From: a phage
Direction: 5' to 3' (one strand)
DNA: 45,809 nucleotides
Assembly (NCBI GenBank): GCA_024854585.1
Contig: GCA_024854585.1_4323.1
Shown: positions 574 through 29,168 of the stretch, piece after piece
Layout: each line of letters begins with the position of its first letter
How positions within the stretch are numbered: the stretch's first letter is position 1
Made by a program: the position numbers and the translations under genes
The notes under the pieces: model-generated
The model's database searches: none
What the model was told of the DNA's origin: nothing
What the model saw: the letters and a program-made list of their open reading frames with translations, nothing else

Positions 574-1659
574 TTATTTCTTAATTTTAGCTAAACGAGC
601 ACGCGGGTCTAATTTCTTAGGCTCATCGTCGCTGTCAGATTTGTCGGAAGCGGTAGTTGCTTTACGTACTTCAGCCATTTTATCAGATTCTTTGGCAATG
701 TCGAACGCCGCGTCGATGTATGCGTCAGACTTCTCGGAAACATCAAGCCCAGAGATTTCTTTAACATAAGCAACTTTAATACCTTTAGCATCCAGGCCAT
801 CAGCCTTCACACCAGCTTCAGCAGCAACAGCTACCAGAACAGCCAGAGCATCAGCATCAGCTTTCGCTTTAGCAACAGCAGCTTCGATTTCTGCTGGCAT
901 TGCATCTACTTTAGCTTTCAGCGAGTCGCGCTCTGCGATTGCAGTGTCAGCCTTTGCGTTCAGCGCTTCGATGTGAGAAGCGATTTCCGGGGCGACCTCA
1001 AATTCCTGTGCGCCGTCGAGTTTAATCTTAATCATTTCCTGTTTATCCTCTTTATTGATATCAACGTCAGTAGTATACGGGTTTTCCTGCTCACCGTCCA
1101 TATTCAATTTGGCAATACCTGCGCGACCGCGATATACCATTGCGAGATGATTCACTTTAATGTCACGCTGAATTGCGTCGAACTCCTGCCATCCTTCTGG
1201 TACGTCGAATAGCTCACTTTCAGACTTAAGGAAGTACTCACCAGTAACAGGGTCACCCCAACCTGGGGTGTAATCAATAACTGATGAGTATCCAACGGAT
1301 AACTCCTTTGCGTTACCTGCCATAGCTTCCTGAATGGCGGCATTATCGTAAATAACAATTGGAGCAACAACGGAGCTGCCTAATGGCTCTGCCTTTCCAG
1401 CAACTGAGCCAACTACTACCTCTTTAGCGTTCTCTGAGTTAACGAAAACATGATCAAGAGTCATTGGTTTACCCTGGTAGCTAGCTAGAGATTCATCCTT
1501 GAAAACCTCCTCGGCCGGGCGAAACTCCCGAACAGTGCGACCGTCCTCCATGTAATAGACTTGCACGCCGAGACGTGCGACTACTGGCGTATCGACTAAG
1601 AATCCATTCTCGTCGATTGTTGCCTTAAACTTTGCGCTGTCATAGCGGATTTTACTCAT
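574..1659 (-). CDS. Prohead protease / scaffold fusion-like head morphogenesis protein
   Basis: 361 aa; C-terminal Ala/Lys/Glu-rich coiled-coil segment typical of scaffolds; directly downstream of portal; AGGAGG RBS. Confidence 0.55.
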   Translation of the reverse strand: MSKIRYDSAKFKATIDENGFLVDTPVVARLGVQVYYMEDGRTVREFRPAEEVFKDESLASYQGKPMTLDHVFVNSENAKEVVVGSVAGKAEPLGSSVVAPIVIYDNAAIQEAMAGNAKELSVGYSSVIDYTPGWGDPVTGEYFLKSESELFDVPEGWQEFDAIQRDIKVNHLAMVYRGRAGIAKLNMDGEQENPYTTDVDINKEDKQEMIKIKLDGAQEFEVAPEIASHIEALNAKADTAIAERDSLKAKVDAMPAEIEAAVAKAKADADALAVLVAVAAEAGVKADGLDAKGIKVAYVKEISGLDVSEKSDAYIDAAFDIAKESDKMAEVRKATTASDKSDSDDEPKKLDPRARLAKIKK

Positions 1660-26505: not shown

Positions 26506-26526
26506 AAAAGCCCCGAAAGGGGCTTT
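26505..26526. terminator. Bidirectional terminator aaaaagccccgaaaggggcttt
   Basis: Between convergent tailspike (+) and HNH pseudogene (-). Confidence 0.6.
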
Positions 26527-26534
26527 ATCTTTTA

Positions 26535-27020
26535 TCAGAAGTAAAACAGTTCTGCTTGCTTCCTTGCCTCTAATGCGGACCCAAACGTTTCGAATCGTCC
26601 GAGGTGTATTTTTCGACTGTTTACAGTTATGGATGCGTCATATTTTCCTTTATTAAAATGTACGCCTCTGTAACCTGTTTTATTGTTGACTCTTACACCT
26701 AAATTGCGCATGTTTCCTGTTCTGTCGGTTTTACTGAGGTTGCTGTAGGCATTGTTTTCTCTGTTCCTGTCAATATGGTCAATTTCAATATCACCATTCA
26801 AAGAACCTTCAACGAAAGCAACCGCAAGCCTGTGCGCCTGGAATCTATCTCCGTGGATGTTTATGCCTATTTATCCATGCCTAAGCGAACCGGCCCGCGA
26901 ACCCATCTCTACACGCCGAGATGTGGGAAGAATCCAAGAAAAGATTCCTGATTCTTTATTGTATGATAGGTGACGCATTGCTGCGTCAACCATATCTTTT
27001 GTTATTTCTTTGTATTTCAT
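26535..27020 (-). pseudogene. HNH-AP2 homing endonuclease interrupted by in-frame TAA (at 26871..26873)
   Basis: ATG 27020 reads MKYKEIT...GSLRHG then TAA then IGINIHGDRFQAHRLAVAFVEG...DHIDRNRENN...YRGVHFNKGKYDASITVNSRKIHLGRFETFGSALEARKQA in the same frame. Confidence 0.6.
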
Positions 27021-27023
27021 ACG

Positions 27024-27440
27024 TTAAAATGGAATATCCGAATCAAACTGCTGTTGTGGTTGTGGTTGTCTCTGCTGCTGATGTTGCTGTTGTTGTCTTT
27101 GCTGCTGCTGTTGTACACCATCACCACGCTGACTAAACTCAAGTCGAGGGTTATTCATGTTAATCGTTACGTAAGTCTTACCATCTTTATCACGAACATC
27201 AACAGCCAGGCTTTCAGCGCTAACGCTAACAACTTTACCCTCTTTAAATGCATCGTTGTACCAATCTAACATTGACTCTTTCGCGAAGAAGACTGCGCGG
27301 TAGTTACTATACTGAGTTTGCCCATCTTTATCCTTGTATCGCTCACTTAAGTCAACTGCAAACATTTTCCAGCTACCATTAGCATTCTGACCTTCCTTAG
27401 TGAATGGAGCGCGGCGAATCTGACCAGTAATTACGTGCAT
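27024..27440 (-). CDS. ssb: Single-stranded DNA-binding protein
   Basis: 138 aa; OB-fold-like N-terminal region, Gln-rich linker, C-terminal acidic tail ending DSDIPF. Confidence 0.75.
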   Translation of the reverse strand: MHVITGQIRRAPFTKEGQNANGSWKMFAVDLSERYKDKDGQTQYSNYRAVFFAKESMLDWYNDAFKEGKVVSVSAESLAVDVRDKDGKTYVTINMNNPRLEFSQRGDGVQQQQQRQQQQHQQQRQPQPQQQFDSDIPF

Positions 27441-27479
27441 ATTTTATCTCTCTATCGTTGGGCCGAAGCCCCGTTAAAT

Positions 27480-28130
27480 TCAGAATGTGTCGATTTGTTG
27501 TGATTCTACTTCAATCTTTTCTTCAGGACTACTTTTTTCTGCGACTCTCTTTGGTGTTGCTGGGTTGAAGCCAGTTGCTGCGTTTGCTTCAATCTCTGCT
27601 TTTCGCTCGATAATATGAGGCTCGAAAACCTTCCATCCTGCCGCATCAAGTGATTGCTTAGCATCCTTCCAAACGTTACGAAGCTCATCGAGCGTATTAC
27701 ACTTCTCAAGTTCTCGCTTAAAGTCTTTGACACCCTTGGCTGCCAGATTGCCATCATCATCTGCCTGGCTAAGGCCTAAGGCTGCTGTGATTCCGTAGCG
27801 ACGAGCGTATGTAAGCGCGGATCCGTAACCTTGAGCATCATTCTTACTGATTGGGACTATCATCAAGAAGCTAACCCACTCTCCAGATTCAGCATGAAAC
27901 AGTTTTGTCTCAACCCTCATACGGTTGGTTTGTTCATCATCAAGCACGCTCTGGAACATAACCAAGCCGCACTCATCTAAGCCTGGCTCAACAGCCGCCA
28001 AAACGTCCTCTAAGGTTGCATACTTATTCTTTAAGTGAGAGTTCTGCTTAGACTTTTCAGCCTTCGCAAATAGCGATTTGGCAGTGTGTAGCGCGTTTAA
28101 AATTGATTTGCATGATTCTGAAATTTGCAT
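27480..28130 (-). CDS. Erf-like ssDNA annealing protein
   Basis: 216 aa; KNKYATLEDVLAAVEPGL and GSALTYARRYGITAALGL...DDDGN patterns reminiscent of the ERF family; sits between exonuclease and SSB. Confidence 0.5.
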   Translation of the reverse strand: MQISESCKSILNALHTAKSLFAKAEKSKQNSHLKNKYATLEDVLAAVEPGLDECGLVMFQSVLDDEQTNRMRVETKLFHAESGEWVSFLMIVPISKNDAQGYGSALTYARRYGITAALGLSQADDDGNLAAKGVKDFKRELEKCNTLDELRNVWKDAKQSLDAAGWKVFEPHIIERKAEIEANAATGFNPATPKRVAEKSSPEEKIEVESQQIDTF

Positions 28131-28185: not shown

Positions 28186-28205
28186 TTTAGCAATTCGTGC
28201 TATAT
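28186..28205 (-). promoter_or_regulatory. Palindromic promoter/operator motif copy
   Basis: tttagcaattcgtgctatat overlapping exonuclease stop; TATGAT hexamer and AACGAACGAGG leader before the Erf-like gene ATG. Confidence 0.55.
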
Positions 28206-29168
28206 TTCGTCTCTATACTTCCTCATATCCCACTCAGGAACATCTAAATCAATCTCTGTTGCGCCCATTGCATAACCTGGCCACACATCATTCTCTTTGC
28301 ACTTTTTGTAAGTGGCAAGCGCCTCTAAATACATCCTGCGACCAACCTTCAGTTGCTCTTCTGTAATGTTGTAAAGCATTGGTAGGTAAGGCTCCTCTTT
28401 CTCGATCGCAAGTAGCCTTACTTTTGTTTTTCTTTTTTCATTAAAAGCCCTAACAAAAACATCGTGCTGTAGCGCCATTTTTGCAAGATAACCATGCTTG
28501 AATGCAAGTCTACCAAACTCATGAGGTGATGCGCTGGATGTCGTCTTAAGGTCGGTAATGCACACAACCCCATCAACAACATCTACGTGGTCAATTCGAA
28601 TCTTCACTCCGACGCCGAGAATCTCACCGAAGATTGATAACTCTTTCTGCGCCGTCTCGCTATTCACGATTGCGCTGTACGCTGGTATATTGCAAAGAAC
28701 TTCTCGCATAGACACAACTTTGTCATAGTCTGCCGCGCTAACTAGCTCCTTACACTCTACAAGCGCTTGCGCGCTCTCCTGCTGCTCAATTAGCCATTTA
28801 ACAGGCCAATCCTCACCAGAACGATACATCATCTCTACTAGCTCGCTATACCCCTTCCCGGACGTGCCGGCTACGCCAACTTTTTTAAGCGCTGCCGATA
28901 ATCCGGCTTGGCTTGTAATTAATCCTTCAATCGCGTCAAGGTCTGTAGCTCGAAGGTATTCTTTATCAAACATGTCACCTTCTAGGATGTACGTGTGACT
29001 CAGCGTTCCAAACTTAAGAGCCTTTCTATCATTATTGCGCTGCTTGAACTTCCACTTTGCTGGTGAGCCCTGAATAATCTCGACAAGTGAGCTACCGGAG
29101 ATGTGTTCAGTTTCAGCGTGGTAAGCCTCGTTGCTTAGCTCCTCTCTCGTAAAAACTTTAAAGCTCAT
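28200..29168 (-). CDS. PD-(D/E)xK recombination exonuclease (YqaJ/Cas4-like)
   Basis: 322 aa; ...IRIDHVDVVDGVVCITDLKTT (D...D.K nuclease core); first gene of recombination module. Confidence 0.5.
   Translation of the reverse strand: MSFKVFTREELSNEAYHAETEHISGSSLVEIIQGSPAKWKFKQRNNDRKALKFGTLSHTYILEGDMFDKEYLRATDLDAIEGLITSQAGLSAALKKVGVAGTSGKGYSELVEMMYRSGEDWPVKWLIEQQESAQALVECKELVSAADYDKVVSMREVLCNIPAYSAIVNSETAQKELSIFGEILGVGVKIRIDHVDVVDGVVCITDLKTTSSASPHEFGRLAFKHGYLAKMALQHDVFVRAFNEKRKTKVRLLAIEKEEPYLPMLYNITEEQLKVGRRMYLEALATYKKCKENDVWPGYAMGATEIDLDVPEWDMRKYRDEI

Follow-up and report, generated by a model that had tools for sequence, protein, structure and literature searches.

Gene organization around ssb

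The stretch of DNA analysed (45,809 nucleotides; GenBank assembly GCA_024854585.1, contig GCA_024854585.1_4323.1), referred to throughout as the window, is the genome of a T1/Rtp-like coliphage (Drexlerviridae), and its best genome-scale match was Escherichia phage vB_EcoS_CEB_EC3a, with 87% identity over 81% of a 20-kb query. The gene of interest, ssb, is the last gene of an exo-erf-ssb recombination module in which the exonuclease gene comes first. The features of the region are given below with the evidence for each in parentheses.

27024..27440, minus strand: ssb gene, 138 codons plus TAA stop at 27024-27026 (ORF list, PHROG 44)
27438-27440, minus strand: ATG start codon of ssb, with GAGAGATAAAAT before it (upstream sequence)
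27126..27440, minus strand: OB-fold DNA-binding core, residues 1-105, MHVITGQ...LEFSQR (AF2, Foldseek, homologue alignment)
27048..27125, minus strand: disordered linker, residues 106-131, made up of GDGV and a 22-residue Q-rich tract (sequence, pLDDT, TRF)
27048..27113, minus strand: the Q-rich CAA/CAG tract proper, encoding QQQQQRQQQQHQQQRQPQPQQQ (sequence)
27027..27047, minus strand: C-terminal tip FDSDIPF, followed by the stop (sequence)
27480..28130, minus strand, directly upstream of ssb: Erf-family single-strand annealing protein (Pfam PF04404, E = 2.5e-27; PHROG 155, E = 1.7e-47)
28200..29168, minus strand: PD-(D/E)XK exonuclease, DUF3799/exonuclease VIII-like (Pfam PF12684, E = 2.5e-23; PHROG 412, E = 3.1e-96)
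26535..27020, minus strand: HNH-AP2 homing-endonuclease ORF of about 161 codons in one frame (PHROG 99, E = 7.5e-30; Pfam HNH_3 for the 3' part)
26507..26526, terminator-like on the plus strand: GC-rich hairpin between the convergent tail-fibre gene and the ssb/HNH transcription unit (terminator scan)

The ssb open reading frame (27024..27440) ends ...FSQRGDGVQQQQQRQQQQHQQQRQPQPQQQFDSDIPF (...LEFSQRGDGVQQQQQRQQQQHQQQRQPQPQQQFDSDIPF in a second rendering) and the first linker residue, G106, begins at position 27125. An identical NCBI protein (P0001, annotated as hypothetical) comes from an E. coli assembly, where it is encoded on a contig of 45,839 bp. The erf–ssb order is kept in every related contig examined that reaches far enough upstream (L017-L031), and Erf is a likely partner of the SSB. 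The 39-nt spacer between erf and ssb carries a small GC hairpin with a TTCG loop (GGGGCTTCGGCCC, 27459..27471, minus strand), which lies about 18 nt ahead of the ATG of ssb.

On its other side ssb is followed, 3 nt past its stop codon, by the inserted HNH ORF, whose single-frame translation contains one stop (an in-frame TAA at 26871-26873), an interruption that reflects either a pseudogene or a sequencing error. The insert gave no megablast match in the phage collection, and in relatives, which lack it, ssb is separated from the convergent tail-fibre gene by a mere 26 nt or so (about 80 at most); the approximately 36 nt after the tail-fibre stop are common to 58 relatives at 95-100% identity. 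The HNH element was considered as a driver of linker diversity and rejected, since an insert found only in this window within the phage collection cannot account for variation that runs through the whole family. The hairpin at 26507..26526 is preceded by an A run, which suggests that it could act as a terminator on the minus strand too.

A divergent SSB of bacterial type

The sequence-only reading had called the gene product an SSB with a DIPF tail and this assignment was borne out by several lines of evidence. The whole protein (residues 1-138) matches positions 89-228 of the 271 in PHROG 44, 'single strand DNA binding protein' (E = 1.7e-29, 104 bits), and the orthologue in phage Rtp (rtp49) is annotated 'putative single-stranded DNA binding protein'. 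The Pfam SSB model PF00436 gave no match at E<=0.1, the only hits being sub-threshold noise (dCache, AF2331-like), the precomputed Pfam entry is blank ('-') for all homologues, and a single-sequence phmmer search of the PDB returned no SSB, giving chance matches only (PsaH and the poly-Q of TFIID). As PF00436 and the single-sequence search were both negative, family membership rests on profile and fold evidence. When a profile of 74 family members (alignment A1) was compared with the PDB it detected the SSBs of Klebsiella pneumoniae (7f2n, E = 1.8e-7) and E. coli (1eqq, E = 7.5e-5), in alignments that span core and tail with the phage tip placed on ...MDFDDDIPF of the E. coli and Klebsiella proteins, so that the score comes partly from the tail.

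The AlphaFold2 model calculated from alignment A1 (mean pLDDT 82.9, with 90-98 over residues 1-100) confidently predicts an OB-type barrel with one helix over residues 1-103 (strands 2-8, 13-19, 22-36 and 42-54, helix 55-64, strands 70-75, 77-85, 88-96 and 99-103), and residues 108-132 have pLDDT values below 50, indicating predicted disorder. Foldseek comparison of the model with the PDB gave 44 matches at E<=1e-3, the best being 4dam (E = 1.8e-5), and the best 50 matches were all SSB or PriB; the fit is moderate, with TM-scores of 0.4-0.6, rmsd values of 5-7 A and about 12-20% identity in the structural alignments. The protein thus has a predicted single OB core like that of solved SSBs, a five-stranded barrel with a helix between strands 3 and 4, together with the low-complexity, predicted disordered linker and the acidic tip at the very C-terminus that characterize bacterial-type SSBs, and lacks the PF00436 match. 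On the profile evidence and the predicted fold it is a divergent bacterial-type SSB that the curated Pfam model does not take in. Of 112 family representatives taken at the 50% level, 48 end in IPF after a Q/P/G-rich stretch, and the layout met most often is such a stretch followed by ...DDIPF.

The three-part layout is the same as that of E. coli SSB (OB core, disordered linker at residues 113-168, acidic tip MDFDDDIPF). The tips read FDSDIPF in the phage and FDDDIPF in E. coli, and in both proteins the linker is of low complexity, rich in Q, P and G, and predicted to be disordered. The phage core, though its fold matches, is too divergent for PF00436, and its linker is shorter (26 residues compared with 56), far more dominated by glutamine (61% Q) and without the glycine-rich and GGWGQPQQP elements that have been manipulated in E. 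coli work, although some distant phage members do have these. In P0121, P0122, P0139, P0143, P0162 and P0167, all distant members, near-verbatim pieces of the E. coli SSB tail are present (GWGQPQQP and NEPPMDFDDDIPF), which points either to common descent of the entire C-terminal region or to recombination events that picked up the 3' end of a host ssb.

Much closer are the SSBs of Rtp (gp49), DTL, IME253, CEB_EC3a, RobRod40 and SU57 (PHROG 44), orthologues whose identity is 84-92% over the complete protein, rising to 94-98% within the core. These Rtp/T1-like orthologues share the exo-erf-ssb context and the tip, and each has its own linker allele: that of Rtp is GDSQPQQNNRQ12RQQPQQQQQ in a protein of 143 aa, and that of IME253 (140 aa) contains Q14. 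Compared with them the allele in the window has shorter pure runs and has the HNH insertion directly downstream, which is absent in the others.

E. coli SSB recruits at least 17 interacting proteins, for which the tip is the docking site, and the linkers of bacterial SSBs are poorly conserved, range from 25 to 125 residues and affect cooperative binding to ssDNA (PMC7145534). RecT proteins recognize the last seven residues of SSB (bioRxiv 10.1101/2020.04.14.041095). The SSB of phage HK620, like the present protein, is a phage-encoded SSB of bacterial type whose gene lies beside a recombination gene, and its tip (the last six residues, NDYPPF) is required to stimulate the cognate Sak4 annealase (PMC5928155); it may serve as a functional model for an Erf–SSB partnership, with the difference that the annealase is Sak4 instead of Erf and the tip is another. 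By analogy, the core of the phage protein would coat ssDNA and the tip would dock host SSB-interacting proteins, and probably also the neighbouring phage Erf, with the linker acting as a flexible tether in which, if E. coli SSB is a guide, composition would matter and exact sequence would not. T1-type phages are not known to encode a DNA polymerase, and a host-like tip makes sense on that account. A host-mimicking tip fits a phage that depends on host replication proteins and has its own Erf recombination module. The gene, which stands as 'hypothetical' in many T1-like phage genomes and escapes the SSB model of Pfam, is confirmed by this analysis as encoding a bacterial-type SSB with such a tip.

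The glutamine-rich tract and the linkers of relatives

The tract proper consists of eight CAA, nine CAG, two AGA, two CCA and one CAT codon, the last three kinds making five interruptions. The 22-residue peptide quoted in the sequence-only reading, as encoded by an imperfect CAG/CAA-type repeat, corresponds exactly to the codons at 27048..27113, and the interval it gave (27040-27125) takes in the whole linker together with a few bases of the tip codons. CAR codons occupy 17 of the 22 positions, the next-best stretch of 22 codons in any frame of the window having 10, and Q accounts for 3.8% of the codons in the window's long ORFs; the CAR enrichment of the tract is far beyond chance. Next in CAR content comes 789..890 (plus strand, frame 3, HQLQQQQLPEQPEHQHQ...), with up to 10 of 22 codons; it includes an in-frame stop and is probably an out-of-frame reading of another gene.

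The repeat is indeed imperfect. Tandem Repeats Finder reported no period-3 array in the tract at a score of at least 30, and no perfect period-3 run exceeds 11 nt, or 3.7 units (CAGCAGCAGCA); when the same CAA/CAG codons were shuffled the longest run was equally short or shorter in 75% of cases, and by this measure there was no signal of selection for or against pure repeats in this allele. What the program did report was a period-27 array of 2.4 copies with 84% matches, coincident with the tract (27048..27113). Self-similarity at nine codons (period 27) is 85% identity; codon shuffles give P = 0.002 for that period alone and about 0.01 when all in-frame periods are considered, which speaks modestly for an ancient 27-nt duplication behind the signal. 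Formation of a hairpin of the CAG/CTG kind was considered and rejected, as DNA folding gave only -1.2 and -0.8 kcal/mol for the two strands (z about 0). As in CAG polyQ tracts, CAA codons break the CAG runs into shorter pure stretches. The allele in the window is heavily interrupted, which should make it relatively stable, and is among the less slippage-prone of its family.

Linker length among related phages, which the sequence-only reading had put forward as the check on its proposal, proved to be variable, and the invariance that it named as a refutation is clearly not seen. In a comparison set of 120 cluster representatives with more than 80% identity, total length is 134-144 aa (129-145 aa when members of four 90%-identity clusters are added). 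The core up to ...LEFSQR has 105 residues in all 120, with a mean pairwise identity of 95.1%, so all length variation falls in the linker, which counted from G106 has 22-32 residues (17-33 with the cluster members). Mean pairwise identity of the linkers is 63.6%, compared with 50.8% expected from composition alone, and the 120 homologues have 102 distinct linkers and 95 distinct cores. The linkers keep a common composition, with 61% Q followed by P, G, R, K, S and H. In the last seven residues, where mean pairwise identity is 81%, none of the 120 homologues departs from F at -7 or from I-P-F at -3 to -1, and positions -6 to -4 are mostly D, N, E, S or G. Of the pairs with identical cores a fraction of 0.9 differ in linker length, a figure that is inflated and is not a rate, because the protein database is de-duplicated. 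Proteins of a sister clade, from Vibrio phages, vary in length likewise (139-195 aa).

Searches with this protein are affected by its composition, since low-complexity filters truncate it in BLAST and poly-Q swamps pattern-based searches, a point to bear in mind in annotation. In a scan of IMG/VR the core alone as query gave 11 loci, and the full-length protein gave at least five confirmed loci, its output being swamped by poly-Q patterns. One entry, P0385 (from a 966-nt ENA contig, in the cluster of P0075), has an identical core and ends ...QQQQQQLRVLLMR inside a poly-Q run with loss of the DIPF tip, which may be a real repeat frameshift or an assembly error at the contig end.

Origin of the linker variation

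Comparison of closely related DNA sequences indicates how linkers come to differ. L026 and L027 derive from separate metagenome samples; across 903 aligned nt they differ only in (CAA)5 versus (CAA)4 and one CAG/CAA substitution, both in the linker, the L026 contig having a coverage of only 1.55x. L028 and L029 (contigs at 214x and 85x) have (CAG)3 and (CAG)2, respectively, with two differences in the 315-nt core, and L030 and L031 have (CAG)5 and (CAG)4 with no core differences. The phages IME253 and Rtp carry (CAG)4 and (CAG)6 between shared flanks, and at the protein level P0075 and P0386 have (PQQ)2 and (PQQ)3 on identical cores. Larger units, of 12 and 18 nt, change as well: CAACAACAACAG is present once in L019 and twice in L020, and phage 12210I has two copies of the 18-nt unit CAACCTCAGCGGCAACAG. 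All linker indels in the DNA compared are multiples of 3, and the longest pure run among relatives is at most six units in the loci examined (that of Rtp). The form of these indels supports a slippage-type origin, that is slipped-strand mispairing or unequal pairing between short repeats, with the proviso that unequal recombination would yield the same products.

The description of the tract as prone to slippage is therefore upheld for the family, in which whole units are gained and lost, and not for the allele in the window itself, with its runs of at most 3.7 units and no propensity to form hairpins. Variation within a population, which had also been suggested as a place to look, was not seen: 43 near-identical isolates of a related phage (MK9072xx) all gave the same tblastn match (span, identity and score), indicating that the rate is not high on laboratory time scales. 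The simple-sequence-repeat contingency loci (phase-variable genes of Haemophilus, Neisseria and Campylobacter) and the CAG polyQ expansion tracts are likewise tandem repeats in coding sequence that gain or lose units through slipped-strand mispairing. Contingency loci typically have an uninterrupted tandem repeat of at least 6-8 units. In the phage SSBs, by contrast, the pure runs are short (2-6 units, 3.7 in the window) without hairpin propensity, and the unit is 3 nt or a multiple of it, so that changes in unit number leave the reading frame intact and do not switch the gene ON or OFF. Of the properties expected of a hypermutable locus the phage gene thus shows unit changes between very close relatives, and does not show a long pure repeat, on/off switching or clonal polymorphism.

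Recombination has also left its mark on the linker. Identical 105-residue cores occur with unrelated linker types and different tips (e.g. P0002, P0008, P0009 and P0113), and the difference in linker length is uncorrelated with core divergence. The linkers of L026 and L027 have the 5' half common to L019-L021 but a different 3' half, tip and stop codon. Between L019 and L020 (~433-1195 and 1201-1520) the erf genes differ at about 120 positions and the adjacent ssb cores at four, which in this alignment is a sharp mosaic boundary between erf and ssb. Judging from such comparisons, part of the linker diversity comes from recombination instead of slippage. It could be argued from the same data, and from the rife mosaicism and the phage's own exo-erf module, that co-infecting T1-like phages, swapping a linker–tip module by homologous or illegitimate recombination, generate most of the linker diversity, with slippage playing a minor part and the repeat serving as a crossover zone. 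We regard this as possible but doubtful, as L026/L027, L028/L029 and L030/L031 differ by a single unit in a pure run with 0-2 changes elsewhere in the gene, which is not what exchange of a module looks like. The two processes are not exclusive and recombination is best seen as a co-contributor.

The interpretation we favour, and hold to be probably correct, is that the tract is the disordered linker of a bacterial-layout SSB of an Rtp/T1-type (Drexlerviridae) coliphage, drifting near-neutrally by unit indels and recombination. Constraint on the linker is confined to composition and approximate length, and its DNA is built of short CAA/CAG/CCN repeats, so that the linker changes fast while remaining in frame. 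It evolves by gain and loss of whole units (3, 6, 9, 12, 18 and probably 27 nt), likely through replication slippage or unequal pairing, together with point substitutions, and recombination with breakpoints in or beside the tract reshuffles the products. The changes look like near-neutral drift within 17-33 residues, with no switch.

That the linker varies widely while core and tip are conserved might instead reflect diversifying selection on its length or sequence, acting through access of the tip to host partners, mixing with host SSB or evasion of defences. The literature offers this reading something: large deletions in the E. coli SSB linker inhibit RecO binding and alter cooperativity, although only large ones matter (PMC7145534), and another paper (PMC12143593) reports that linker composition governs condensation with ssDNA and partner binding unchanged and has a section headed to the effect that linker compatibility governs co-condensation of SSB variants. 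Phage SSBs are also known to trigger defences such as Retron-Eco8 (bioRxiv 10.1101/2022.08.27.505566). This last connection was rejected as not applicable here, as the escape mutations, in T7 and SECphi4/6/18, sit in SSBs of the gp2.5 type, a different family (bioRxiv 10.1101/2022.08.27.505566). Moreover, E. coli tip peptides bind RecO, PriA, PriC and chi equally at any length of attached linker (PMC7145534), so that the idea, raised by the sequence-only reading, of modest length changes tuning the interactions of the tip is not favoured. The narrow length band and the strongly conserved composition of the phage linkers are better accommodated by drift under stabilizing selection than by adaptive tuning, and we consider diversifying selection improbable.

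A more elaborate version, which we rate as more improbable still, would make the repeat-built linker a selected 'accordion' in which CAA/CAG/CCN units, acted on by the phage Erf and exonuclease, generate variants of length and composition that are sorted by selection, the tract being in addition a preferred crossover point that moves tips and downstream cargo (e.g. the HNH insertion) between phages. Were this so, linker variants would set the degree to which phage SSB mixes with, or is excluded from, host SSB assemblies on ssDNA or, alternatively, would allow escape from host defences that sense phage SSB–ssDNA complexes. Finally, although two plus-strand ORFs, of 71 and 99 codons, run across the tract, the notion that it is a chance low-complexity run, non-coding or coding on the other strand has practically no probability left and is refuted by the conservation data, as the minus-strand frame is conserved through the invariant IPF and the stop in more than 120 homologues, the indels keep to multiples of 3, CAR codons are enriched far above the background of the window, and the plus-strand ORFs are L/V homopolymer-like artefacts of the repeat with no family matches.

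Gain and loss of whole codon repeats is ordinary behaviour for SSB linkers, met here in a phage family that curated models miss, and its direct importance is small. The role of the linker in E. coli SSB (in cooperativity, condensation or accessibility of the tip) is still debated, and the natural phage alleles, with linkers of 17-33 residues on the same core and tip, are a ready panel for work on the in vivo role of linker length and glutamine content.

A departure from the common layout was seen at the C-terminus of one sub-family (the L015 gene from 1501, P0124, P0181 and P0220), in which a conserved extension of 14-15 residues continues past IPF with the pattern ...DDIPF-AP[IFV]GL[QM][YH]........ 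(e.g. FEDDIPFAPIGLQYGMSNIYVL). Such an extension would bury the carboxylate of the terminal Phe that is normally recognized by SSB-tip-binding pockets, and its presence in four distinct clusters at the 50% level makes an error unlikely.
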